64,000 nt of DNA. Origin: an uncultured Lachnospiraceae bacterium. Lineage in GTDB: Bacteria > Bacillota > Clostridia > Lachnospirales > Lachnospiraceae. Positions 7,120 through 32,900 of this stretch are shown here, one piece after another. A model generated the notes under the pieces. It made no database searches. It had not been told where the DNA came from and was given only the letters and a program-made list of their open reading frames with translations. The first letter of the stretch is position 1, and every line of letters begins with the position of its first letter. The stretch is from contig CAMVID010000008.1 of NCBI GenBank assembly GCA_947167445.1, positions 206 to 64,205 of the forward strand, in the 5' to 3' direction. A program made the translations under genes and the position numbers.

Positions 7120-8148
7120 CTACAGCAAATCTGCTATTTCATATATAAGTTTTTCAGTCTTCTCAATTCCAAGGCAAGGGTCTGTAATTGACTTACCGTA
7201 AACGCTTCCGCCAACCTCCTGGCATCCGTCCTCGATGTAGCTCTCAACCATGAAGCCCTTAACAAGTCCTGCAATGTCCTTGTTATTCTTCATTGAATTA
7301 AGTACATCTCTGATGATTCTTGGCTGCTCGAAGGGATTCTTTCCTGAGTTGGCATGGTTGGTATCAACTATTACAGCAGGATTCTTTAAATTCTTCTCCA
7401 TGTAAAGTTCATACAATCTTGCCAGCTCTTCGTAATGATAGTTGGGCTGTGACTCACCGTGTTTGTTGGTGTAGCCTCTGATAATTGCATGAGCGTAAGG
7501 GTTACCTGATGAGTGAACCTCCCAGCCTCTGTAAATAAATGTATGTGAATGTTGAGCCGCAAGTATTCCGTTAAGCATTACGGAGTAATCGCCTGAGGTA
7601 GGATTCTTCATTCCGACAGGTGTTGCAAGTCCGCTGGCTGTAAGACGGTGCTGCTGGTTCTCAACACTTCTTGCTCCCACAGCAACATAGGCCAGAAGAT
7701 CATCCAGATACTGGTCATTCTCGGGATAAAGCATCTCATCCGCGCAGGCAAATCCAGTCTCCTCGATGGCCTTCATGTGCATGTGTCTTGTGGCAATGAT
7801 TCCCTTGAACAGATCGGGCTTCTCGTTGGGATTGGGCTGATGAAGGATTCCCTTGTATCCGTCTCCCGTTGTACGAGGCTTATTGGTGTAAATTCTGGGA
7901 ATTATAAAAATCTTATCCTTAACCTTCTCCTGAATGGGACAAAGCCTTGAAATATAGTCGATTACACTGTCCTCTCTGTCCGCTGAGCAGGGTCCGATTA
8001 TAAGCAAAAGCTTGTCATCTCGCCCGGAAAGAATTGCCTCAAGTCCGGCTCTCTTTTCGCTGACAACCTTATCCATCTGCCCCGTAACTGGGTAAATCTC
8101 CTTAACCTCTATGGGAAGCGCCAGCTTCTTCTCGAATTCTACGTTCAT
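7120..8148 (-). CDS. aroF: 3-deoxy-7-phosphoheptulonate (DAHP) synthase, class I
   Basis: 342-aa ORF with LLLIIGPCSADRED and IYTNKPRTTGDGYKG motifs. It is the last gene of the aro/phe/tyr operon. Confidence 0.85.
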   Translation of the reverse strand: MNVEFEKKLALPIEVKEIYPVTGQMDKVVSEKRAGLEAILSGRDDKLLLIIGPCSADREDSVIDYISRLCPIQEKVKDKIFIIPRIYTNKPRTTGDGYKGILHQPNPNEKPDLFKGIIATRHMHMKAIEETGFACADEMLYPENDQYLDDLLAYVAVGARSVENQQHRLTASGLATPVGMKNPTSGDYSVMLNGILAAQHSHTFIYRGWEVHSSGNPYAHAIIRGYTNKHGESQPNYHYEELARLYELYMEKNLKNPAVIVDTNHANSGKNPFEQPRIIRDVLNSMKNNKDIAGLVKGFMVESYIEDGCQEVGGSVYGKSITDPCLGIEKTEKLIYEIADLL

Positions 8149-8152
8149 TTCT

Positions 8153-9013
8153 CTACTCCTTATTGAACTGTGATCTCCTCTGTGTGGAGAGTCTCATCTT
8201 ATCTATAAGACCTTCTCGATTGTCCTTTTCAATCATGTTTCTTATCTCGCCCATCTCGCCCATAAACTTATCAATCTGGCCAAGTAACGCCTCCTTATTA
8301 AGGAGGAAAAGCTCGCTCCACATCTGGCCGTTTATATTGGCGATCCTTGTCAGATCCCTGAAGGAATCCCCTGTATAATCCCTGGCCTTCACTGAATCCT
8401 CACAGGTCATAAGAGACACCGCAATACAGTGGGTAAGCTGGGAAACATAGGCTATCATGTCATCGTGTTCCTCGGGACTAAGAATTGATACCCGGTAAAA
8501 ACCAAGCACTCTCCCCAGATTCTCACACCACATGATTCCCTCTTCAGTGTTCTTATCAGTGGGTACAACGATGTAATTTGCATCTCTGAAGATCTTATCA
8601 GAGGCGTTCTTAACGCCCCAGACTTCCCTTCCTGCCATGGGATGAGCCGAAATGTACTCAACGTCCGTATCTGCCAGTTCCTCCTGAACCTTATAAAGGA
8701 AGGAACTCTTGACCCCCATTACATCGGTGATCTTTATTCCTTTTTTGAAAAATCCCTTGTTCTCAGAAATCCACTTAACAACTATTGATGGATAAAGGGC
8801 AATGATGATGCAGTCAGCTTTTTTAATCAGCTCCGGGTCATCAAAGGCTGCCCCCTCATCTATTATACCGTTTTCCAGTCCATATTCTATGGCTTCCTTA
8901 TCCTTATCGATTGCAAGGACATGATGGCCGATTCTTTTGATGGCCTTGGCGTAACTTCCGCCCATAAGTCCAAGTCCCACAATAAGGACATTTGATTTGT
9001 TAACCCACTTCAT
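8153..9013 (-). CDS. tyrA: Prephenate dehydrogenase
   Basis: 286-aa ORF with an NAD-binding site VGLGLMGGS and a core ISAHPMAG. It is 4 nt from aroF. Confidence 0.85.
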   Translation of the reverse strand: MKWVNKSNVLIVGLGLMGGSYAKAIKRIGHHVLAIDKDKEAIEYGLENGIIDEGAAFDDPELIKKADCIIIALYPSIVVKWISENKGFFKKGIKITDVMGVKSSFLYKVQEELADTDVEYISAHPMAGREVWGVKNASDKIFRDANYIVVPTDKNTEEGIMWCENLGRVLGFYRVSILSPEEHDDMIAYVSQLTHCIAVSLMTCEDSVKARDYTGDSFRDLTRIANINGQMWSELFLLNKEALLGQIDKFMGEMGEIRNMIEKDNREGLIDKMRLSTQRRSQFNKE

Positions 9014-9015
9014 AA

Positions 9016-10038
9016 TTAATCCTCATAAAAGTAGTCGGTGCCATATCTTGATGAGAGTAAATCATACATGACGATTGCGCTCATGGCTTCAACAACCACC
9101 TTTGCTCTATGTATAATGGCGGGATCGTGACGACCTTCTATCTGAAGTTCTCTGTTCTCTCCGCTCTTTAAATCTATGCTTTCCTGCTTCACGTAAACGG
9201 ACGGTGTGGGCTTTATTGCAAGCGAGAACTCAATGGGCATTCCATTTGTTATGCCACCGTTAATCCCACCGTTGTTGTTAGTAGTCGTAACAATCTTACC
9301 GTCTTCATTTCTGAAGGAATCGTTATACTCGCTTCCCTTTAACGCCACTCCGTCAAAGCCTATACCAAACTGCACTCCCTTAACTGCGGGGATACTGTAC
9401 ATTGCATGGGCAAGGACGCTTTCAACCGAGTCAAACCAGGGTTCCCCAACCCCTGCAGGCACTCCTTTTATCTGGGCTTCAAGGACGCCGCCAACACTGT
9501 TGCCTTCCGCTGCGGCTGCCTTAATTGCCGCTTCCATCTCTTCCCATGAGCCTGCTATTCCGGCAACGGATTTGATCTCGCAGGAGATTTCGATGCCTTT
9601 TTTCTTAAGAGCAGGCAAAACAACTGCTCCCGCAGCGACCAGGGCTGCGGTTATTCTTCCGCTGAAGTGCCCGCCGCCTCTGAAATCCTCAAAACCATGG
9701 TATTTAACGCTTGCGGTGTAATCCGCGTGTCCCGGCCTTGCAATTCGCTCAGCCTTCTCATAATCGGAACTTCTCTTTGCCACATTTGGAATCAGTATGG
9801 TCAAAGGAGAACCTGTGGTTTTACCATTAAAGTATCCACTGACAATCTGAAATTCATCAGGCTCAACCCGGGAGGTTGAAATCACCCCTGCAGGTCTCCT
9901 TTTTGAAAGAAGCTCTCTTATGTAATTCTCATCCACCGTAAGCCCAGGTGCAAGTCCATCGAGAACTGCGCCGATGTATGGACCGTGGCTTTCTCCGAAG
10001 AGCGTTATCTGTAAGCTGTTTCCAAAGGTGTTTTTCAT
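9016..10038 (-). CDS. aroC: Chorismate synthase
   Basis: 340-aa ORF with signatures FGESHGPYIGAVLDGLAPG, RPGHADY and GGGHFSGR. Confidence 0.95.
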   Translation of the reverse strand: MKNTFGNSLQITLFGESHGPYIGAVLDGLAPGLTVDENYIRELLSKRRPAGVISTSRVEPDEFQIVSGYFNGKTTGSPLTILIPNVAKRSSDYEKAERIARPGHADYTASVKYHGFEDFRGGGHFSGRITAALVAAGAVVLPALKKKGIEISCEIKSVAGIAGSWEEMEAAIKAAAAEGNSVGGVLEAQIKGVPAGVGEPWFDSVESVLAHAMYSIPAVKGVQFGIGFDGVALKGSEYNDSFRNEDGKIVTTTNNNGGINGGITNGMPIEFSLAIKPTPSVYVKQESIDLKSGENRELQIEGRHDPAIIHRAKVVVEAMSAIVMYDLLSSRYGTDYFYED

Positions 10039-10049
10039 GGAAATCCTTT

Positions 10050-11060
10050 CTATGCTTCTGCCGCCTTAATTCTCTTAGTAAGTTCAGCGGCGTCCATCTC
10101 TCTGATTTCAAATGTTCCAAGCCTCTTGACATAGACACATTTAATTGTATCACCGTTTGCCTTCTTGTCATGAAGAACCGCCTTCATGGCTTCCTCTTCA
10201 TTAAACTTTGCTTTTACAGGAAGATTAAGCTTTTTAAGCAGTGCCTCAAGCCTCTCGGCGACTTCCCCGTCACACATGCAAAGCATTCCCAGACCCACGC
10301 ACTCGCCGTGAAGGAGCTCACCCATGAGGGATGACTCAATGCCGTGGCCTAAAGTGTGGCCGAAGTTAAGGACTCTTCTCAATCCGCTTTCCTTCTCATC
10401 CTCCTCCACCACGCGCTTCTTTATCTTAATGGCCTTGTATATTATGTTGGTAAAATCTTCTGTATCGCAGTTATCCTCAAGGTCCGAGAAGAATGTCTCG
10501 TCAAAGGTTGCCGCCATCTTCACCACTTCCGCCATGCCGTTTGAAATCTGACGTTTCGAAAGGGTCTTAAGGGTATCTGTATCGATTATGACCTTCGTAG
10601 GCGGATAAAACGCTCCAATGATGTTCTTAACTCCCTCGAAATCAATGGCTGTCTTCCCTCCTATGGATGAATCCACCTGGGAAAGGAGGGTCGTGGGAAT
10701 ATTATAGAAATCAATTCCTCTCATATATATGGAAGCGGCAAAACCGGACAAATCTCCGATAACGCCTCCTCCTACTGCCACCACGCAATCTCCTCTTGTA
10801 AAGCCGGCATCAAGCATGGCCTTCTCAAGTTTCATGAGATTATCCAGGTTTTTGCTCTCTTCTCCCTGTTTAAGCACCAGGGTTACCGGCTCCTTTGAAG
10901 CCTTGGCCACAGCTTCGGAATACTCCTTGGGAACTCCGTCATCAGTGACGATAAGAACCTTTCTGTTTAGCTTAAGAAGCTCACCGACGTTCTTAAGCAA
11001 CCCGCTTCCTAAATCAATATCATAATTTCCTGTTTGAGTAATTACATTGATTATGTTCAT
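10050..11060 (-). CDS. aroB: 3-dehydroquinate synthase
   Basis: 336-aa ORF with VAVGGGVIGDLSGFAA and the metal-binding motif NFGHTLGHGIE. Confidence 0.9.
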   Translation of the reverse strand: MNIINVITQTGNYDIDLGSGLLKNVGELLKLNRKVLIVTDDGVPKEYSEAVAKASKEPVTLVLKQGEESKNLDNLMKLEKAMLDAGFTRGDCVVAVGGGVIGDLSGFAASIYMRGIDFYNIPTTLLSQVDSSIGGKTAIDFEGVKNIIGAFYPPTKVIIDTDTLKTLSKRQISNGMAEVVKMAATFDETFFSDLEDNCDTEDFTNIIYKAIKIKKRVVEEDEKESGLRRVLNFGHTLGHGIESSLMGELLHGECVGLGMLCMCDGEVAERLEALLKKLNLPVKAKFNEEEAMKAVLHDKKANGDTIKCVYVKRLGTFEIREMDAAELTKRIKAAEA

Positions 11061-11067
11061 TTCTACC

Positions 11068-11895
11068 TCAAATCTTAATACCGGGTTCGTATCTGCCTAC
11101 TATTTTAACAAACTGGCACTGTTTTTTTAAGTCCTCAAGCATTTCTTTGCCCTTGGCTGACTCAAGATCTCCTTCCACCTCTACGTAGAAGTAATAAGTC
11201 CAGTTGGTTTTCTTCTCAGGTCTGCTTCTTATGACTCTCATGTTGAAGCCGTGATCACCGATTTTGGAAATGGCTTTCGCAAGTCCTCCGGCTTCATTCT
11301 TAACTGTGAACATCATTGCCGATGTGCAGTCGGGGTCCTCTTTCTTCTTGGGGTTCTTTGAAAGCACGGCAAATCTTGTCACATTGTTTGCGCTCTGATT
11401 GACATCCGTAGCAAGAACTTTAAGCCCATATAAGTCAGCAGTTTCTTTGCTCGCTATGGCACCCACCTCAGGGTCGCCTCCGAAGGAAACCTGTCTTGCT
11501 GCCCTGGCTGTATTCTCATAAGGAACGGTTCTGAAGCCATGTTCCTCAATGAACTCATGGCACTGCTCAAGAGCCTGAGGATGACTGAGAACTGTTCTGA
11601 TGTTCTCAAGTTTGGTGTTCTTGGTTCCAAGAAGGCAATGTGAAATGGATAACTCATATACATTATCGAATTCCAGGGAACCTCCATAAATAAGGTCCAT
11701 TACCTGACCAACTTCACCGGCAAAGCTGTTCTCAATGGGCAAAACCGCCACATCGCATTCGCCGTTCTCCACCTTTGCATATGCCTCGTCGAAGGATTTG
11801 CAGCTTATAAACTGTTCATTGGGATAAATCTTTCCCGACGCAATGCTTGCGAAGGAACCTTCAATTCCGCTGTAAGCCACTTTCAATTCACTCAT
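11068..11895 (-). CDS. pheA: Prephenate dehydratase (PDT + ACT domains)
   Basis: 275-aa ORF with VAYSGIEGSFA and NVTRFAVL motifs plus a C-terminal ACT-like segment. It is the first gene of the operon. Confidence 0.9.
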   Translation of the reverse strand: MSELKVAYSGIEGSFASIASGKIYPNEQFISCKSFDEAYAKVENGECDVAVLPIENSFAGEVGQVMDLIYGGSLEFDNVYELSISHCLLGTKNTKLENIRTVLSHPQALEQCHEFIEEHGFRTVPYENTARAARQVSFGGDPEVGAIASKETADLYGLKVLATDVNQSANNVTRFAVLSKNPKKKEDPDCTSAMMFTVKNEAGGLAKAISKIGDHGFNMRVIRSRPEKKTNWTYYFYVEVEGDLESAKGKEMLEDLKKQCQFVKIVGRYEPGIKI

Positions 11896-11952
11896 AATTA
11901 ATCTCCTTTTCTTTTGAGCTATCCTTAAAAGTGCTTACACCTGACATAACAA

Positions 11953-11981
11953 AAGGCGCCAACCTTTCAGGATAGCGCCTT
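11953..11981 (-). terminator. Attenuator terminator in the pheA leader
   Basis: Minus-strand RNA reads AAGGCGC-UAUCCUGAAAGGUUG-GCGCCUU followed by UUGUUAUGU. There is a 7-bp GC-rich stem (11953-11959 / 11975-11981). Inner pairs UA/UG and CCU/AGG extend it. It lies 57 nt upstream of the pheA ATG. Confidence 0.65.
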
Positions 11982-12009
11982 AATTTATCTTGGTTATATT
12001 TCTCAGCGT

Positions 12010-12141
12010 CTATTCCTTAACCCTTATTGAACGATTACGATAATAATAAAAGTAAAAGCCAAAAAAGCCTGCAAAAAAGCAAGCCTGGGTAAAGTAAAAG
12101 AATACGCTGTTAAGTTGTGAAAGGATTGCACTTATACTCAT
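12010..12141 (-). CDS. Phe/Tyr-rich leader peptide (43 aa) of the pheA-aro-tyrA operon
   Basis: The ORF is below the size cut-off of the track. GGAG sits 6 nt upstream of ATG 12139-12141 (complement). The peptide is MSISAILSQLNSVFFYFTQACFFAGFFGFYFYYYRNRSIRVKE. In it, 14 of 21 consecutive residues are Phe (9) or Tyr (5). The stop TAG at 12010-12012 sits inside the putative antiterminator arm. Confidence 0.65.
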   Translation of the reverse strand: MSISAILSQLNSVFFYFTQACFFAGFFGFYFYYYRNRSIRVKE

Positions 12142-12173
12142 ATCTGTCTCCACATCACAAATCTACTTTAATG

Positions 12174-12203
12174 ATTTTACACTTTAAACCGATAAACTGT
12201 CAA
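12174..12203 (-). promoter_or_regulatory. Sigma-A type promoter for the pheA leader
   Basis: On the minus strand, TTGACA (12198-12203), an 18-nt spacer and TAAAAT (12174-12179). It lies about 30 nt upstream of the leader-peptide ATG. Confidence 0.5.
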
Positions 12204-12213
12204 GAGCTTATTT

Positions 12214-12636
12214 TTATTTTTTTAACTTACTTACCATATTTGCAAGAGATAAGAAGTTTTCGGTTTTTACCAGAGCTATACCCTGGCCTTCATCTCCAAG
12301 TACCACAATCTGGTCCCCGGGATTTATTTCAAAAATCTTTCGCGCCTTGGCAGGAATAACAATCTGGCCCTTCTCGCCCACAGTAACCAGGCCAAACAGA
12401 TGCTTTCCCTTGGGAGGAACTGCCACCCCCAGATTGTCCTCCGGTTCATAATTGGCCAGATCATCCAGTGAAACGCCGAAAATATCTGCAAGCTGTTTAC
12501 ATTTGTCAAGGTCCGGAACGGATTCTCCGGACTCCCACTTGGCTACTGACTGTCTGGTTACGCCCAGTTTGTCAGCGATATCTTCCTGGGTCAACCCCAT
12601 TAATTTTCTTGTTTGGACCAGATTGTCTTTGAACAT
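12214..12636 (-). CDS. XRE-family HTH regulator fused to a SpoVT/AbrB-like domain
   Basis: 140-aa ORF with an N-terminal HTH LTQEDIADKLGVTRQSVAKWESG. The C-terminal AbrB-like motif is GQIVIPAKARKIFEINPGDQIVVL. Confidence 0.75.
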   Translation of the reverse strand: MFKDNLVQTRKLMGLTQEDIADKLGVTRQSVAKWESGESVPDLDKCKQLADIFGVSLDDLANYEPEDNLGVAVPPKGKHLFGLVTVGEKGQIVIPAKARKIFEINPGDQIVVLGDEGQGIALVKTENFLSLANMVSKLKK

Positions 12637-13722
12637 TTATTTCTCCTTTTTCTTCTTGATTCCAAGAACTGCCCATCTGAAGAAGGGAATTCTTGAGATA
12701 ATTGCATAGAGGCCATATCCGAAAGCAAAGCCCGCAATAAGGCTAAGTACATAACATAAAGGTGCAGGCAAAAACTTAGGTTTTGCAACTAAAAGCGCTA
12801 CGGTTGAGATTCCCAGATAGTGGAACACATAAAGTCCGAAGCTGTGTTTCGTCATCCACTCTGTAAACAGAGTTGCTTTGTCTCCGAAACGAGCCATTCC
12901 CGATAGCATTGCAAGGGAGCCGATATAAGCGCTCAGGCTATACATGATTCCTCTGTTAACCGGCTTTTCCGCATAGTTTTGGCCAAAGTACAAAATAGTA
13001 AATGCAACGCACAGGCCCACTGCTATTACTATCAAAGGCACCGCTGTTTTCTTAAGTTTTTCCATAACCTCTTCATTGGAAAAAACGTAATATCCCAGCA
13101 TAAAGAACACAAAGTAGAATGCGATCCTGTATACAGAAACCACAGGCGTATTAAGAATCTGCGCTCCGCCCCACACAAGGAAAAAGAAAGGAATTAAAAG
13201 CCATAGCGGAGTTTTTGCTCCCGCCTTAAGGAGTCTTCCTTTTTCTATTTTCCTTATCAAAAGAAGCACCACACAGTATATCCATAAAAGATGTACGAAC
13301 CAAAGCACACCGCTTCCCGAGGCAACCATTATAAGGAATATAACAGGTGCCGGAACTCCTGCAGCTGCCAGCCCTTCAATTCCTCCACCAAGAGACATGC
13401 TCACATATCCTTGTATGAACTGGAAGAAAAAAAGACCTATTGTTGAAGGAACCAAAAGTTTTAGGGTTCTTGATTTCATGAACTCTTTATCTGTGTGAGA
13501 GTCCAGATATAGTCTTGATCCTATTCCTGAAATCAGGAAAAGAACAGGCATGAACCAGGGATATACCAGGTACATGAAAGCATCATAGTACTGAACCTCA
13601 AGGTTCGTAATCTTCTGCAATCCTCCGGCTATTCCCTCGGCATTGTACATAAAAAAAACGTGATAAATAACAACAATGACAACCGTAATCCAACGAATGT
13701 TGTCCAAATAGTGTTTTCTCAT
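12637..13722 (-). CDS. Acyltransferase family 3 integral membrane protein
   Basis: 361-aa ORF with many hydrophobic helices. The N-terminal NIRWITVVIVVIYH is typical of the acyltransferase-3 family. It abuts the XRE-AbrB gene with no gap. Confidence 0.7.
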   Translation of the reverse strand: MRKHYLDNIRWITVVIVVIYHVFFMYNAEGIAGGLQKITNLEVQYYDAFMYLVYPWFMPVLFLISGIGSRLYLDSHTDKEFMKSRTLKLLVPSTIGLFFFQFIQGYVSMSLGGGIEGLAAAGVPAPVIFLIMVASGSGVLWFVHLLWIYCVVLLLIRKIEKGRLLKAGAKTPLWLLIPFFFLVWGGAQILNTPVVSVYRIAFYFVFFMLGYYVFSNEEVMEKLKKTAVPLIVIAVGLCVAFTILYFGQNYAEKPVNRGIMYSLSAYIGSLAMLSGMARFGDKATLFTEWMTKHSFGLYVFHYLGISTVALLVAKPKFLPAPLCYVLSLIAGFAFGYGLYAIISRIPFFRWAVLGIKKKKEK

Positions 13723-23936: not shown

Positions 23937-26900
23937 TTAGATTTTGACCTTATGCTTCTTTCGATAGTAGATTGCACCACCTATACCCGCAAGGAGCGCT
24001 AAGGATGCCAATACATAAAGTGCCATTCCCTTCTTGTTTTCTTCATCCGTCGGCTTGCTGTCAGTTATATAGCCTCCGTAAACACTGAAGTCCTTAATGG
24101 AGAGTCTTGCATTCTCCGACTCATAACCTGAATCCGTCATGAACTTATCCATGTCAATGATTTCGTAGGTTCCGGTTGACTGATTATAAACAGTCATAAG
24201 CTTCTTCTCAGTGGTGACACTGTCAGTGGGAGCTTCACTTTCTGTCTCCTCATCTTCCGCTACTTCCATCAAGTCCTTCACGCTTGATGAATGTTTACCT
24301 ACGTTGACTCCATCGGTTTCAAGGCTTTCCGTGGCTGCAGTTTCATTACTTGAAGCCTTTCCTTCCACGGCGGGTGCCCTTCCTGTTCCGCCGCCTGTGG
24401 CTTCTCCTGAAGTTTCATTGGTACCGTCAACAGTTTCCTGGCTTCCATCAAGATCAGGTTCGTCAAGTTCATTAACTTCACCTGTTCCAACGCCTCCGCC
24501 TTCGCCATTTGTATGGGCCTTCTTAGAGTTTTCTTCTCCTCCTAAGCCTGCTGCCTTCGAACCTCCCACAAGGGATTCCTCTCCGGTTTCTGATGCAGTG
24601 CCGCCCATGGCCAAAGCTTCGCCTCCGTTTCTTTCGCCTTCCGTGGATGCGCCGCCTTCAATTCCGTTTCCTGCCGCTTCTCCTTCATCCATGTTGCCCG
24701 CAATGAGCATTCCGTCAGCGACATTACTCTTCTTGTTTTCGGAATCGCTTCCCTTTACCTCATCGGTGTCGATTCCGATATCGAAGCCGCTGTCCTCTTC
24801 AAGGTTCCTTAAGGTCTTGTTATCTCCTGTCTTCTCGGTATTGTCTTCATCAAACAAAACCTTCTCCGTAGACTTATCAAAGGCTGTCACACCGCCTTCG
24901 TTATTGCCCTCAAGCAGTTCACCATTATTATTTCCTACAACCATGGTTGCAAGTCTTTCAGGTGTTCCCGCAAGTTCTGCGACACGGCCTGTTGCGCCGT
25001 ATAAGGAAGCCGCAGGCTTTAACAAGGATTTATCTCCGCTAAAGTAAACCTTGATGTAGTCGATAAGGGACATCTCATTCTTGATGGAATTATCGAAGAG
25101 ATATTCTCCTGTCATGTAGTTGTAACCGACTATACCTCCGTTGGCATACTCTACGAGGATAAAGGGTGCAGATGTGTTAAAGTTATTTGACATGTATAGG
25201 ATTCCGCTTCGTTTAAAGTCCTCGGGAGCATTTATGTTTTCACCCATATAAAGGTCAAACATAATTCCGTCGTTTCCAAGAACAGTCAGATACTCGTCTC
25301 CATCCTTCGTATACATGACTGCGGAATCCTTGATATTTTCAATGGAGGAATGAATGATATTCACATTTCCGTTTCGGCTCTTTAGTATCTGAGCTTCACG
25401 GGTAATGAAATCATCTGCACCACCTATCATCGCGTACTTCCAGTATGTTGATACGGGCATTCCGTTAAGGTTGAATTCTTCAAGGGCTTTAGGACTCCTG
25501 GTAAGTTCGATTCCCTTAACCGTATCTCCTATCACACTGCCGTCAGAAAGATTAATAACCCTTCCTGATGAAGTAAGTCCGAATCCTTCATAGATATTTA
25601 CAAACTTACCGGAAATCAAAGTTGCAGTGGGATCCTTGCCGTCCTCACCTCTCTCTTCAGCACTGCTGCCGTAGCCTTTGACTACGCCGCCATCTGTCAC
25701 ATAGTAATATGCTGTATCGTAAGTCATTACACGTCTCGCAAGAGATCTGGGCTTATAGATATATGGATTGCCGCCCTCAAGTGACTCGCCCCCGTCGCCT
25801 TCTTCCTCTTCGAGGGAGTCTTCATCCTTATAGGCCATGGTGTAGTCATCAAGGAAACTATAATCCTCTAAAATGTCTTCTATCTCATAGTCAACTCCGA
25901 GAGTCTTTCCGTCTTCACTCATGGAGGCAATGTATCCGCCTACATCAGCATATCCATATTCAATTCTTATCTTTTTTGCAAAATCATAATTTAGCGTCAG
26001 AACCCTTGAATTACTCTCACCGTAATTTAAAAGGGTCTGAACTGCAGGTTCGGATTGGTTTCCGTAGTAAACCTTTACATATGTAGATTCTGCCTGCAAA
26101 GCATTCTCCGCAAACTCAATATTTATTGTCGATGCTGAGCTTGCATATACCACAGGGTCAGATATTACGGGGCGCATTATCCTCATGGCCGCCCTGAGTC
26201 TAATCTTCCCGAGTGAACTTGTGGGTGCGGGAAGATTTATATTCTTCCTTACCTGATACTGTGTAAGAGAATCATTCGCAGTTGTGTTGTTATTCACTCT
26301 TATATGAGGAAGATAACTCTTGCCTGAAACTGCACCATAATTTCCGTTGGCGTAAACGCCGGAGTAGGTCTTTGTATCAGCTGTGAGAATTACATAGTAG
26401 TATCGTCCTGCCCAACCGGGATTTGTATTTCCTGTGCTGGAGGATACATGGTACATAGTATAGTAAGGTCCGTGGGTCGCCAGGTCGGTTCCTGTAATAA
26501 GTCGAACGTTTAAGGTATTGGTTGTATCCTTCTCCTTGGTGTCATACACACCCGTTCTGTCGTTACTGTAAACCACATATCTTGCCACATCCGTGGTGCC
26601 TTCTATTACGTTATACTGAACGAACTTGGCACTTCCGTTTCTTGCCCATTCAGGGGCCTCGGAGTTCTTAAGGAATGCCAGTTTCACAGAACCTGCTGTG
26701 GTTTCAAGTTCAGTGCTGTCCCAGAAGAAGGTTATATCGGCTTTATCAACGGTCGATCTGTCCTTGGCATCGCCGTAACTTCCGCTGGTCTGATTGCTTC
26801 TGTTAGCCCTTCCTTCAAAGCCATCCACATTTCCTGCAAAAGCATGGGCATGGGTTCCGCCTGTGGCTGTAATCTTCGAAGCAAGACCAAGGTTTCTGTA

Positions 26901-29900
26901 TGTATAAGTAATTTCGTTTGCCGAACCGGTCTTGGGAAGAGAATCTGTAGCATTGACTCGTCTTCCGCCATTGGCTGCCGCACCGCTTCCGCCGTGAGAG
27001 CTTACAGCTTCGCTTGAAGCCATGGTAATGTCTCCCACCAAACCTCCGGCATAATCCTTTGCACTGACGGTTCCTGCAAAATAGTTTCCAAAGAGCGATG
27101 CTGTTGAATAACCGTAGTTGTCTTTACCGCTTACCTTGGTTACCGTGTAACCGTTTCTGTATGCTCCGTCTACACCGCCTGCGTAGAAATTAGCGGCTTT
27201 TACATTTGCATTGGAGTAGCTGTACTGGACACTTCCCGTAAAGTGATATCCTGCTACACCTCCTACGTAGTTGTTACCTGAAACGAAGTATTTATCATTT
27301 GCCTTTGGCGATGCAGCGCTTTCAGGCTCCGCGTAGTAGAAGCATCGGGATAAGGAGTTGTTAAGGTATCCTGCCACGCCTCCTACATTATTGTGTTTAG
27401 GCGCATCTATGGTTGTATTTACCGCACTCGAATAGTAGACAGGATAATATGCATATCCGATAACACCGCCGACGTTCTTAAGCTCCGTTGTTATGCTTCC
27501 GGTCTGATTCAGTTCAATCGTCGAATCCTCAACCTTACAATAGTAGATTGAACCGTCTGAGGACTTGTAGCCGTATCCCAGTCCTACGAAACCATGGTTG
27601 TTAATCTTGATCTTCGTTCCCTTAACCATGTCATAGTAGCTGATATAGGAAATCTGTCCGGCGATACCGCCTACGTAGTTATAAACTGCGGTGGTATCCT
27701 TAACAGCGGTTACCAGAGTGTGGTAGCAATGACTGTCATAGTCATCTGTACAGTAGCCATACATTCCGCCAATGTTATTGACATATCCCTTGACCACTAT
27801 GCCGTCTACCATGTTGCTGACATTGGTTTCTGCGGTGTCATAGGGTGAGGTTTGCACTACTCTTGTGTTGTAAGCCCCGGCAGAGTTGATTTTGCCAAGG
27901 AAATAAACATTCGTGTAGCCTATGAGTCCGCCAATGTGAGTACTGCTTGTGGTCGGATTCTTGAAGCTTATGGTTGTGGTTGATGTATCTGTATATCCGT
28001 CAGCATCTTTGCTGACTGTTCCCGTAAGGGTTACGTCTGCGAAGAAGGATCCGGTTTTGCCTGACATTCTTCCTGGCTCATAACCTCCCACAATGCCGCC
28101 TACTCTCGCATTGGCATTTGAAGTAACAGTGAAGTCTGTACCCCTGATCTTATAGAAGCTTGCCTTGCCTGCTCCTCCGGAGATTCCTCCAACATTTCCG
28201 TTTCCGAATACATTTACATTGGTGGCATCTATATTTGTGAAAATCGTATTACTCTTCGCATATCCCGTAATGCCACCTGCATAAGGACTTGCAGTTGTAG
28301 CGTTTGTTCCTATGGTTACATTGTTTAATACAATCTTTCCGGAATCGGGATCTGCCTCATCATACTTACCGATGCAGCCACCGTTCTGATATCCGATAAG
28401 GCCGATGAAGTTGTTGGCGGAGATGCTGTTGATGGTGATATTGTTAAACTCCATATCATAAACCGCACCTGATGAAGTTCCGATAAGACCGATACAGTCA
28501 CGGCTCTTTGTGTTGACTGAGCAGTTACTGAATCTAAGGTTTGATATCTCGGAATTCAGTCTGAAGATAAGGTTCTCGTTTGCATTGGTGAGTCTGATGT
28601 TACTTAAGGTAAGCATTGAATCACCGGTTCCCACGGTTCGGAAGCCTCTCAGACGTCCTATCTTTGCGTTCTTTGTATAAGCTGCTCCCGATGAGAAATC
28701 GATATCATTTACGATTCTGAAGTTCTCATAGTTGCCGTAATTGGTCTCCTCTTTAATGTACTTATTCCAGGTAGTAATATCCGCAATATCCGCGAAGAGC
28801 ATAAGGGGAATTCGTACAGGGTTATTCTCGAAATTTGAATGACCCGTTATTTTTCCGTCAGCGCTCTTATAGCTTATGGACATAAGCATGTAACTGTCTA
28901 AGAAATGCTCCTGCTTGATGTCATACTCAATAGGCTGTCTTGCGGTACCGCTTGCATTAAAGGTTGCTTTATAGTTGTTATAGAATTTGCAATTAAGATC
29001 CTCTATTTTATAGCCGGTAATGACATAGCCTTCAGGGCCTTCAAGGTCAAGAGCAATACGTCTTTCTGTTTCATTGACGAATACGCTTGTAACCTTTATA
29101 AGGTTGTTTTCAACCTTGGTAAGGCTCAAAGGTATATCCTTCTCCTGGAAAGGCATGGGCACACTTGTGCCGTAGTAATATAGCGTAGGCAGGTGTTCTG
29201 CTGCTGCCTTGCTGTAATCGTAAGCACCGGCATCCATATCAAGTAGTGATGAATCCGTATAGGTGGCAGGATTCGTGGCCTGATCATATGTGATAAGTCC
29301 AAATGTGTTCTTGTCACAATCCTTTACGGTACCCTGATATGATTCATCTGAAATAAGTATTCCGTCCTCATCGAATTTGGCTCCGGTAATACCGTTATAA
29401 AGCTGAACCTCACAGCCGTAGAAGGTGCTTCTTGTTCCTGCCATGGAACCTGTTGTATATGAAACGTCATCTGAATCCGTGTTGACGCACATTACATTTC
29501 CAAGAGCAACACCGGACATATTGTTTCTCTCGGCGATGGTTCCCTCGGTGATGTTGATTTCACCTGCTATACCACCCACGTTATCCTGGTAACTCTTTAC
29601 GTCTACTCTTGAAATTATATTGGTCATCATGTTGGTGACGCAGCCTGCGGTATGGTAACCCACAATTCCGCCTACGTTGTTGCCACGCACACTGATATCA
29701 CCTGTAGCATACAGATTTTCAAGGGCTGAAGTTCCGCTGTAGCCTACTATTGCTCCTGCACCCAGACAGGTTCTTAAATCGTTTGCTTCTATTTGAACGT
29801 TTCTTGCAAAACAGTTGGTGACTCTGCAGCCGTCAGCTCTAGCTGCGATGGCTCCGATTTTGCCTTCCGTATTGGAGTTGGCAGGTTCGGCATATGTAAT

Positions 29901-32900
29901 CTCTGCGTCGGTTGAACTGCAGTTTTCAATCAGAGTTCCACCGTATGCATAACAAACAAGGGTTGTCAGATATGTTCTTCCCGTAATATGAGATCTTACT
30001 GTGTGAACGTTGCTGACCTCTCCATATAATGCTGTGATAAAACCGTTGTAATCTCTGTTTGGAACATTGGCGGTGAAATCCTCTATGCAAAGGTTCTTTA
30101 CAGAGCCGTCAACTCTTGTAAACACAACGGGGTTATATCCGCTTCCCGTAAATGTAATATTCTTAAGGCAGAAACCTTTTCTTGTGGCATTGTTGTCCTT
30201 TTCGACGCCACCCTTTCCCATTCCGCCGTCAAGCTTTCCGGTATATGTGTTAGTTACGCAAATTCTGTCTCTTGGGACACCGGAGAAATCAATGTCGCAT
30301 GCCAGTCTTGCGTTTTCATCAGGTTTCTTAACCACATAGTTGTACCAGTCATCCGCAGTCTCAATCAATCTGTAGAAATCGACTGCAAGAAGTGCGTCGC
30401 TTTGTACAACCGATGTGGAGTTTCCAACGGACACGGTAAGGTTCTCTATCGCATACATGGACACAAACTTGGCAGGATTTGAAACCTTAAGATACATAGT
30501 TGTGTATCCGTCAAGCATGGTTGTTTTGAAGGTGTCATCTTCGTAGAGGTCGGTGTCAAGGTTCTCGATTGATACTGCTTTGATAACGGCGTTCCGGGGG
30601 TTATTAAGTCTAAGTTTGATGAGGGCTGAATCGCCGTTTTCACCGTATGAGACCACCTCCGTGGAAATTACTTCCACCAACCTTGTGATGTTGCGATTAG
30701 GCAGAGGTATAAGCTCCTGATCCGGGAGCTCGTTACTTAGGGATACATGAGGGTAGAATCCAACCTCAACGGGCTGCGCATCAAAGCCCGCGCCCAGAAC
30801 CTCACCTTGCCAGTTGTAATCATATAGTGATTCCAAACCAATCATATGTTGCTTGGTAGATTTGGCATAAACATTATTACCTTCATTCCAGTAGTAAATT
30901 CCGGAATGGGTTGCACTGTTGACACCGAGGGCAGGTCCAACAATTTCTGTGTCGTACATTTTGCCGTTATATGGCATATTGTAGAAGGACTGTCCGACGC
31001 TGTACATGCTTTCGCAGTTTCCGATTGCATAGCCGATTATTGCGCCATACTGCGTGTCACGTGCCTTTGAAGCATTCATGTCGGGGTTTGATACCACCAC
31101 GTTTACAAGGGAGAAGACATGATCGGTCTTACCTCTTGAATTCTGGTAGCCTATGATACCGCCCACATTGATTCCCGAACCTGCCGAGGTGGTCTGGGTC
31201 ACGGAATTAATGTCTGATCCATAAACGTAACCGTTTCTTACAACACCATCGTTAAGGTATACAAGAAGACCTGCGTTGCTTCTTGCAGAAAAAACACAGC
31301 TATCTCCCTGAGGATCATTCTTTATAACGAAGCGCTCAATAACACCGCTGGCTGCGTTTCGTCCTGCAACAAGTCCGTAGTAGATGTTGTTGGTTCCGGA
31401 ACCGCCAAGGTAATGAACGAAAATATCGTGAATATGTCCGTAGTTATGTCTGCAGAAAATACCATGGTCATACTCTCTTGTTGTGGTATGATCCGAAAAC
31501 TCAAATACGGCGTTTTTAATCTCAGCCTTGGGACCGATATTTGAGAATATAGCTCCTTCATTCTTATAGTTATTCTTCTGAAGCTTATATCCCTGGAAAT
31601 CAATTTCTCCCCTGAAGGTTCCTGTTACACCCGCACTGGGAAGCGTTGCCTTTAAAGCACCGTTACTGTCATAGTCAACTTCATCCATGATGATGTCACC
31701 GGTAACAACAAATCTTGCGTTGGGATTCTTGCTGATCTTTTCTACAAATTCTTTAGCATTTGCAATCTCAAAAATGCAGTCTCTTGCATTGAATTCCAAT
31801 GTGTCAAGAATCAGCTTGTTTTTGTTTATAATTACGTACAGAGTCATTTTGTACGTATCATCCGCCTTGTTAACCTTCCACTCAGAGTTGGTTCTTATGG
31901 TATTAGTACCGTCATCATAAGCGTAATTTTCTACCTTTGTAAGGCTTGTATCGAAAGTGGAAGTAATATCAACCCCATTCTTCTCCACTGTGATGAAATA
32001 AGGCATCTGGCCGTTCATAATGCGGTCATCATCGTAGATAAGAACTCTGGTCTTGGCGGTAAGTCTTGTAGCCGAGAAGTTATCAAGGCTTATTAATTTG
32101 ATATTTCCCGAAAGGTTAATGGGATTATCAATAAAGTGCTGGTAAATAAGCTTGTTGGACTCAAAAGTCTCGTTGGTGTATCCTTCGTTGTACTCAACGG
32201 CAACGAAATTCATAAAGAAGGTTTCCGAAGGATCAAGTCCCGTAAACTCATAGGGAACAGGTGCGTCTGTATTCTTCGGTACACGTACGGCCCTTACCAG
32301 GTTCCTGTGGCTGTCATACAAATTAAGTACCACAACATGACCCGAGTTACCTGTGATGGCTCCGTCGGGATCTTCTATTTTTACGTTAAATCTCAAAGTG
32401 CCGGCCGCCAAAAGATCATCGGTAACCGTTACCTTTGCAGGCTCACGCATGGTCTTGAAGGCAGACCTTGTAAGAGATACGTTCATCTCATATCTCTTGC
32501 CGTTATAAAGGGCATAAACCACGGGAGTGATTGAATACTCCGTCATGCTTGTAAGGTAATAGGGAACCTCATCACCCACAACAGGATTATTCTTAATATC
32601 CCTGAAGTTCTTAAGAGCTTCCTTTTGTGCGTCTGAAAGGCCTTCGCCCTTCTCGAAATAATTGGCGTCCATCAATACACTTCCGGGAGTCAGATCCTTG
32701 TTTCCGGTGTCAGGATTGTAACCCGTGAAGTTATGCATTGCCTCATTATCAAAAACCATACCCGAATGAACTCCGGGGTTGGCTCCCTCGGTAGTATTAA
32801 TAAGAAATACCACGTCAGAAAGAAGGCCCTGAAGAGTTTCATTGGTCTTGGCATCGTTTATTGTGTAAGTTATATTTGCACTGTGCGCTGTTACATGGGC

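Follow-up and report, generated by a model that had tools for sequence, protein, structure and literature searches.

We report here that the operon pheA-aroB-aroC-tyrA-aroF of an uncultured rumen Lachnospiraceae bacterium is very probably controlled by a ribosome-mediated leader-peptide transcription attenuator, which would tie the expression of these genes to how much charged tRNA-Phe and tRNA-Tyr is available. The element lies on the minus strand of a 64,000-nucleotide (nt) stretch of contig CAMVID010000008.1 (positions 206 to 64,205), which is called the window here and whose own numbering is used throughout. Such control by tRNA-Phe and tRNA-Tyr had been proposed from the letters of the window (the original prediction), and it is now supported in silico by conservation, covariation and folding with masked ribosomes. 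The genes that follow the leader are:

11068..11895, minus strand: pheA, prephenate dehydratase with an ACT domain, first gene of the operon, ATG at 11895 with a Shine-Dalgarno sequence between the leader hairpin and this ATG
10050-11060, minus strand: aroB, 3-dehydroquinate synthase
9016-10038, minus strand: aroC, chorismate synthase
8153-9013, minus strand: tyrA, prephenate dehydrogenase
7120-8148, minus strand: DAHP synthase of the aroF/G/H type

These gene identities bear out the earlier statement that the operon makes phenylalanine (Phe) and tyrosine (Tyr), as its products correspond exactly to the synthesis of these two amino acids plus the common pathway. Between the promoter and pheA, the first structural gene, there is a short open reading frame (ORF) with its own Shine-Dalgarno sequence and start codon:

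12198..12203, minus strand: -35 hexamer TTGACA of the leader and operon promoter, found by sequence scan
12174..12179, minus strand: -10 hexamer TAAAAT, with an 18-nt spacer to the -35 hexamer; the transcription start would lie at about 12167
12148..12151, minus strand: Shine-Dalgarno GGAG of the leader ORF, 6 nt 5' of the ATG at 12141
12010..12141, minus strand: leader ORF of 43 codons plus UAG (12012-12010), translation MSISAILSQLNSVFFYFTQACFFAGFFGFYFYYYRNRSIRVKE
12040..12102, minus strand: regulatory block, codons 14-34, with nine Phe codons (eight UUU, one UUC), five Tyr codons and no tryptophan (Trp) codon

The promoter and the ORF with its GGAG are as first described, and the promoter (12203..12174, minus strand) matches the consensus at 11 of 12 positions. 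The ORF carries a cluster of codons for the end products of its own operon, pheA and tyrA lying downstream: 14 of 21 consecutive residues are Phe or Tyr (F/Y), which is the number originally counted. Among the 2314 six-frame stop-to-stop segments of the window, the leader included, the next-best 21-residue stretch has 9 such residues, and 14 was not reached in any of 20000 shuffles of the U-rich leader sequence itself. A scan of the window for further mini-ORFs rich in one amino acid returned nothing convincing. The same leader ORF is annotated as hypothetical protein SAMN02910368_01127 in Lachnospiraceae bacterium G11, whose PheA (contig FMWZ01000008.1) is 99% identical to that of the window. 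When the leader peptide was compared with 5.8 billion proteins, only one cluster was found, namely the G11 protein itself, and relatives were therefore sought via PheA.

The leader RNA was analysed by folding and pairing with ViennaRNA, together with covariation and RNAalifold on an alignment (A3) of seven distinct sequences. Minimum-free-energy folds and RNAalifold lead to four segments and one additional hairpin inside the ORF:

12083..12109, minus strand: segment 1, 5' strand of the anti-antiterminator, overlapping the first F/Y cluster; its core is CUUUACCC (12094-12087) and it includes CAGCG (12109-12105)
12004..12023, minus strand: segment 2, of which 12023-12015 and 12008-12004 pair with segment 1
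12017-12005, minus strand: 5' arm of the antiterminator, AGGAAUAGACGCU, within segment 2, holding the stop codon UAG
11969..11981, minus strand: segment 3, comprising the 5' arm of the terminator, AAGGCGCUAUCC (11981-11970), and the 3' arm of the antiterminator (11979-11969)
11946..11964, minus strand: segment 4, comprising the 3' arm of the terminator, GGUUGGCGCCUU (11964-11953), and the U-rich tail UUUUGUUAU (11954-11946)
12065..12086, minus strand: in-ORF hairpin AGGCUUGC-UUUUUU-GCAGGCUU, followed by UUUUGG and scored as terminator-like by a simple scan

Segments 3 and 4 form a predicted intrinsic terminator, which lies 3' of the leader ORF and 5' of pheA. Its hairpin AAGGCGCUAUCC-UGAAA-GGUUGGCGCCUU (11981-11953), followed by UUGUUAU, has an energy of -17.3 kcal/mol and begins after a 28-nt spacer from the stop codon, so the GC-rich hairpin with a U-rich tail is present where it had been placed. 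The simple terminator scan did not list this main hairpin (11953-11981), probably because its inner stem is mismatched. The antiterminator is somewhat longer than originally thought. A helix of 9 base pairs (bp) between 12006-12016 and 11970-11978 had been suggested; the pairing and its two 1-nt bulges stand, while the actual extent is 11 bp, formed by AGGAAUAGACGCU (12017-12005) with GGCGCUAUCCU (11979-11969). Its energy is about -12 to -13 kcal/mol, which is equalled by approximately 2% of shuffles of the upstream arm. Two elements were absent from the original prediction, namely the in-ORF hairpin (12086-12065) and the anti-antiterminator (12109-12083 with 12023-12004), the latter being a helix between segments 1 and 2 (1:2) that overlaps the regulatory codons in silico.

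Taken as a working attenuator, these elements would operate as follows. Transcription would begin about 26 nt 5' of the 43-codon ORF, and a ribosome that translates the 14 Phe/Tyr codons undelayed would reach the UAG inside segment 2 and cover this segment. Segment 3 would then pair with segment 4 (3:4), the terminator 11981-11953 would form and a transcript of about 220 nt would be released. A stall at the F/Y codons (12102-12040) would leave segment 1 covered or unwound and segment 2 free to pair with segment 3 (2:3), so that the antiterminator (12017-12005 with 11979-11969) would permit read-through into pheA. An untranslated leader would form the 1:2 helix and end in termination. We infer the translation of the leader, the premature 3' end and the response to Phe and Tyr from the arrangement of the RNA, and the pause of RNA polymerase should be read likewise.

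The in-ORF hairpin is probably a pause or synchronisation site for RNA polymerase: together with its U-run (12086-12061) it would hold the polymerase until the ribosome arrives. The Phe codons of the leader are eight UUU to one UUC, compared with 60 UUU to 63 UUC in eight genes of the window, operon genes included. The motif TTNTTT, which is the NusG pause consensus of Bacillus subtilis, occurs three times in the leader (at 12102, 12078 and 12066), a density of 13.5 per kb versus 2.6 per kb in the window. The UUU bias and the TTNTTT motifs fit a pause function of the hairpin and U-run without proving a pause.

The search via PheA returned homologous leaders upstream of pheA at the following loci, given with the identity of their PheA to that of the window:

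L002/L021: 94-95%
L022: 86%
L034: 83%
L035: 77%
L036-L038: 60%
L039: 58%

Thus, the F/Y mini-ORF, whose conservation in relatives the original prediction had made a test of itself, is retained down to 58-60% PheA identity. The seven distinct homologous leaders have 42-43 codons with 10-14 F/Y codons each, as exemplified by MLKQTKQHMESSYYFFTQACDYAGLFGMYYYFTDCDESTPGKE (L036) and ...SSYYFFTQACFFAGLFGMYYYMDHDVDSPGKE (L039). Loops and flanks vary, in contrast to the F/Y block, the ORF length and the helices, which are preserved. The gene upstream of the leader varies among these loci (an HTH-AbrB gene, Peptidase_M64, BrnT toxin and others); therefore the leader element belongs to pheA and travels with it. 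The promoter is kept as well in L002, L034, L035 and L022, among which the upstream gene varies. The comparison with L022, whose pheA shares 80% of its nucleotides with that of the window and 56% at third codon positions, gives this footprint of identical nucleotides:

F/Y core: 59/63 nt
segment 2: 13/13 nt
terminator: 29/29 nt
antiterminator loop: 11/25 nt
region after the terminator: 26/50 nt
5' untranslated region: 19/32 nt

The alignment A3 also contains compensatory changes, three in the terminator and one in the 1:2 helix, each of these four pairs being changed on both sides. RNAalifold independently predicts the 1:2 helix, which encloses the in-ORF hairpin, and the terminator. Over these three structures 97.9% of the cells of the alignment are paired, compared with 27-62% when the partners are slid, and the covariation score is reached by none of 500 shuffles, which ignore phylogeny. 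In the terminator 97% of the cells are paired, and its compensatory changes relative to L036/L039 are G-C to A-U twice and G-C to U-A once. The 1:2 helix (columns 79-86 with 153-161) is 96% paired and has changed from A-U to U-A in L034. This change alters two residues of the L034 peptide, T18F and V41E, and leaves the 1:2 pairing intact, an indication that it is the RNA, and not the peptide, that is under selection. The in-ORF hairpin is 100% paired in the seven homologues, with three one-sided compatible changes, and is intact in L036 although the codons of its loop have gone from Phe-Phe to Asp-Tyr. Across the homologues, 92% of the antiterminator is paired. Its complementarity is kept in L036/L039 despite altered arms: the distal part has been swapped for UGCA with UGCA, and -8.6 kcal/mol is retained.

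The dependence of the fold on the ribosome was modelled by masking a 29-nt footprint at successive positions of the A-site in five distinct homologues (window, L022, L034, L036 and L039). Full-length masked folds always give the terminator, and the informative comparison is therefore the truncated transcript, in which the 3' arm of the terminator has been left untranscribed. For the window, the 1:2 helix forms and segment 3 is free when no ribosome is present, and addition of the 3' arm gives the terminator. Of the 14 F/Y codons, 11 give the 2:3 antiterminator when they occupy the A-site, and all 14 do so once the RNA behind the stalled ribosome is made unavailable as well. Once the A-site has reached codon 40 or the stop codon, the ribosome hides segment 2 and the antiterminator is absent. 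The masked folds thus reproduce the expected switch between stall and stop. In all five homologues 2:3 forms upon a stall at F/Y codons and fails to form with a ribosome at the stop, and in three of the five the leader without a ribosome forms 1:2 instead of the antiterminator. The antiterminator and the terminator are mutually exclusive in silico in these five homologues, the upstream arm of the antiterminator being covered at the stop and free upon a stall.

Several observations weigh against attenuation by the ribosome. The fold of the whole leader is no more stable than that of shuffles (z = -0.83). At about -12 kcal/mol the antiterminator is less stable than the terminator with its -17.3 kcal/mol, and therefore the switch must be kinetic, as it is in classical attenuators. 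A single masked ribosome at codons 27-30 leaves the 1:2 helix, formed across the ribosome, preferred at equilibrium, and 2:3 is already the favoured fold of the untranslated truncated transcript in two of the five homologues. The core of the antiterminator is near-invariant and thus offers just one compensatory pair of its own, and in L036/L039 the energy of its duplex only modestly beats shuffles (p about 0.12-0.14). The covariation comes from only seven distinct sequences in two subgroups, with a shuffle control that takes no account of phylogeny. Additionally, RNA polymerase has been reported to outrun ribosomes in B. subtilis (cited in PMC9226507, PMC7858274), and this would count against such a mechanism unless pausing compensates.

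Three other explanations of the same sequence were considered. The switch between terminator and antiterminator could be real and be set by an RNA-binding protein, a tRNA or a small ligand, with the ORF being incidental or serving only to load ribosomes. Aromatic operons of Firmicutes are commonly under T-box or TRAP control, and the high sequence conservation of both the antiterminator core and the in-ORF hairpin would suit a binding site. However, no T-box or Rfam family matches the leader even at E<=10, and a signal of this kind leaves unexplained why the frame, the ORF length and the Phe/Tyr codons are found in divergent homologues and in the unrelated leader classes described below. It also leaves unexplained the stop codon, which lies exactly within the 5' arm of the antiterminator in the window type, L004 and L042. 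We regard a non-ribosomal signal as improbable.

On a second view the leader ORF would be the gene of a small hydrophobic protein with a function of its own (a membrane peptide or a product resembling a type I toxin, for instance), which is located 5' of pheA by coincidence, and the hairpin would be its plain terminator. The peptide is indeed 43 amino acids (aa) long, aromatic and hydrophobic with a basic C-terminus, and the G11 annotation lists it as a hypothetical protein. However, its hydrophobic and basic character is lost at 58-60% PheA identity (e.g. ...QACDYAG...TDCDESTPGKE), whereas the F/Y codons, the length and the helices are kept; the residue changes of L034 are compensatory at the RNA level, and synonymous positions have changed far less in the core than in pheA. 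The same operons are repeatedly preceded by F/Y mini-ORFs of 16-31 codons that are unrelated in sequence, and the peptide matches no protein family, only its single cluster in the 5.8-billion-protein search. A functional peptide is thus very unlikely. Even less credible is the notion that the hairpin 11953-11981 is a constitutive terminator or insulator of the HTH-AbrB gene (12214-12636) and that the F/Y ORF arose incidentally from a U-rich spacer, even though no other terminator lies between the stop of this gene (12214) and the leader; of the three we consider it the least probable. A near-consensus promoter separates the HTH-AbrB gene from the leader, the leader and its hairpin stay with pheA under a different upstream gene in L002, L034, L036 and L039, and such an F/Y run did not arise once when this U-rich sequence was shuffled 20000 times. 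Attenuation by a ribosome that stalls at Phe and Tyr codons accordingly remains the explanation that we favour.

Beyond the homologous leaders, Clostridia with 45-55% PheA identity have F/Y-rich mini-ORFs and terminators before their phe/aro operons that are unrelated to the window leader in sequence:

L003/L019: leader MMNNKFFFYFYYFAKDCPSS, 5' of the first gene of the operon
L004:4532-4720: leader MNMALLSSVFFFSISVVFYFGYAYFAMKSYL
L009/10/12/15/18: leader M..RFYYYSYTDCLCA..
L042:864-990: leader MRPYVSGFFFSRSAMD

Trp is absent from all these unrelated leader classes. In L004 and L042 a strong terminator follows the leader, and a segment complementary to the 5' arm of the terminator spans the stop codon of the leader; the masking model works for L004. 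A Tyr-dominated family, here called DC-type (M..RFYYYSYTDCL.. or KFFFYFYYFAKDC), lies 5' of operons of other Clostridia that combine aro genes with a fusion of chorismate mutase and prephenate dehydratase (CM-PDT). Its loci are:

L009:4568-4740
L010:4581-4715
L012:4573-4722
L015:4581-4715
L018:4570-4720
L003:2768-2925
L019:2762-2925

A conserved DC-type segment, ACGGACUGUCU, is complementary to the 5' arm of the terminator, GACAGCCCG (84.5% paired, two compensatory pairs), and precedes the stop codon. The masking model did not reproduce the classical logic on the DC-type loci (L009/10/12/15/18, L003/19); therefore they count for the recurrence of a mini-ORF with a terminator only and not for the mechanism. 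In L036, a leader of the window type, ...YYY.TDC... / ACGGAYUGU is shared with the DC-type, a hint that the two types may belong to one family.

No F/Y leader was found at the PheA relatives L040, L041, L043, L044 and L045, at the Treponema loci or at loci with an operon-internal pheA. The F/Y leader element is recurrent but not universal. The loci L040 (~920-945), L041 (~925-950) and L045 (~905-930) share the motif GTGAGAAAATGAGC..CAGT between a terminator and pheA, and their pheA sits downstream of a PBP_like_2 gene. The Treponema/Spirochaetia loci (L007:5006-5068 and L008:6942-7004) contain a conserved 20-codon ORF (MLE.[IF]RQK[VI]YGFFYFEVNDV) overlapping the start of a gene of 536-537 aa downstream of the aro genes; this ORF may extend the N-terminus of that gene's product or be a small upstream ORF (uORF).

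The leader belongs to no RNA family of Rfam. A cmscan of 11000-13000 at E<=10 gave three chance-level matches to unrelated families only, and Rfam had no match in the whole window at gathering thresholds or in nine related loci. A T-box (RF00230), a known riboswitch, Phe_leader and the Leu/phe leader RF01743 were ruled out, as no covariance model matched. The closest relative in logic is the enterobacterial pheL-pheA leader (Rfam Phe_leader) with the trpL/hisL class. Likewise, these have a short leader rich in codons for the end product, four segments with 1:2, 2:3 and 3:4 helices (the terminator lying before pheA in the case of pheL), a site of stalling within or close to segment 1, and a stop codon at which the ribosome sits on segment 2. 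However, Phe_leader has no similarity to the window leader in sequence or covariance model, and Escherichia coli pheL has about 15 codons, compared with 43 here. The window leader also differs from enterobacterial pheL by mixing Phe and Tyr codons (9 and 5), by governing a combined pheA-aroB-aroC-tyrA-aroF operon, by its extra conserved in-ORF hairpin with U-run and by its host, a member of the Lachnospiraceae (Clostridia).

The original prediction held a leader-peptide attenuator to be unusual in a Firmicute, and this was overstated. His attenuators are known or predicted in the Bacillus cereus group, in Clostridioides difficile/Peptostreptococcaceae and in Erysipelotrichales (PMC9413887), and so are hisS/hisZ leader-peptide attenuators in bacilli (PMC2965389). 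For the ilv-leu operon of Staphylococcus aureus (ilvD leader) there is genetic evidence, as suppressor mutations map to its leader and to its terminator (PMC5794164), and Lactococcus has the Leu/phe leader RF01743 (PMC2864571). The his, ilvD and Leu/phe attenuators follow the same principle, i.e. an ORF with regulatory codons, a terminator and an antiterminator, and thus indicate that the leader-peptide mechanism is viable in Firmicutes. They concern other amino acids and other operons, have no sequence relationship to the window leader, and none is described for Phe/Tyr in Clostridia. The motif uORFC-13-1 is described (PMC8632094) as a predicted uORF with Phe codons directly 5' of an intrinsic terminator before aroF in Acholeplasma, its U run coding at least one Phe, limited to Acholeplasma and environmental sequences. 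It resembles the window leader in having a Phe uORF and a terminator before a shikimate-pathway gene in a lineage near Firmicutes, and it is set apart by the 14 F/Y codons, the operon and the taxon of the window. In vmlR of B. subtilis, stall-dependent attenuation has been demonstrated, together with pausing of RNA polymerase at hairpin/TTNTTT sites, by which the ribosome gains the time it needs (PMC9226507), and this in a species for which runaway transcription has been reported. The layout of anti-antiterminator, antiterminator and terminator driven by uORF stalling is common to vmlR and the window. However, the signal of vmlR is antibiotic-induced stalling on a tiny uORF, whereas that of the window leader would be a shortage of charged tRNA; likewise pausing is demonstrated for vmlR, whereas the window hairpin and its TTTTTT (12086-12061) are only presumed to cause it. 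No paper on Phe/Tyr leader peptides in Clostridia or Lachnospiraceae was found in the literature collection searched, which is incomplete. As leader-peptide attenuators are already known in Firmicutes, the element is an uncatalogued family within a well-known regulatory class and not a new mechanism.

Some features of the neighbourhood deserve mention. The PheA of the window is a 275-aa protein with prephenate dehydratase (PDT) and ACT domains and without an N-terminal chorismate mutase domain, whereas most relatives at 45-60% identity are CM-PDT fusions of 360 aa; a chorismate mutase gene is not evident in the operon of the window. The gene 5' of the leader promoter (12214-12636, minus strand) encodes a 140-aa fusion of HTH_3 (Xre-type) and AbrB/MazE (SpoVT-type) domains, which is a neighbour also in L035 and L020 and not in L002, L034, L036 and L039. 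The window also contains very long ORFs on the minus strand, namely:

23937-35090, minus strand: 3717 aa
43076-49438, minus strand: 2120 aa
18511-22593, minus strand: 1360 aa

The leader of the window and at least three sequence-unrelated F/Y leaders suggest a repeated origin of such elements in Clostridia, where T-boxes might be expected. It is conceivable, and we put this forward tentatively, that Phe/Tyr attenuators form a widespread uncatalogued family, or several independently evolved ones, in gut and rumen Clostridia, and that the type found in the window has a built-in conserved pause module (the hairpin and a UUUUUU/TTNTTT tract of Phe codons) that holds RNA polymerase for the lead ribosome. 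If the pause module is real, transcription and translation would be synchronised in these Firmicutes despite the picture of runaway transcription drawn from B. subtilis. As the mechanism needs a ribosome that paces RNA polymerase, these attenuators and their in-ORF hairpin and U-run could be natural reporters of coupling or pausing outside Proteobacteria. The finding adds a case of dual Phe/Tyr sensing to the short list of leader-peptide attenuators in Firmicutes, and it gives a testable cis-regulatory annotation to a hypothetical protein and to the control of aromatic amino acids in Lachnospiraceae, a family which is abundant in gut and rumen and whose regulation is largely unstudied.

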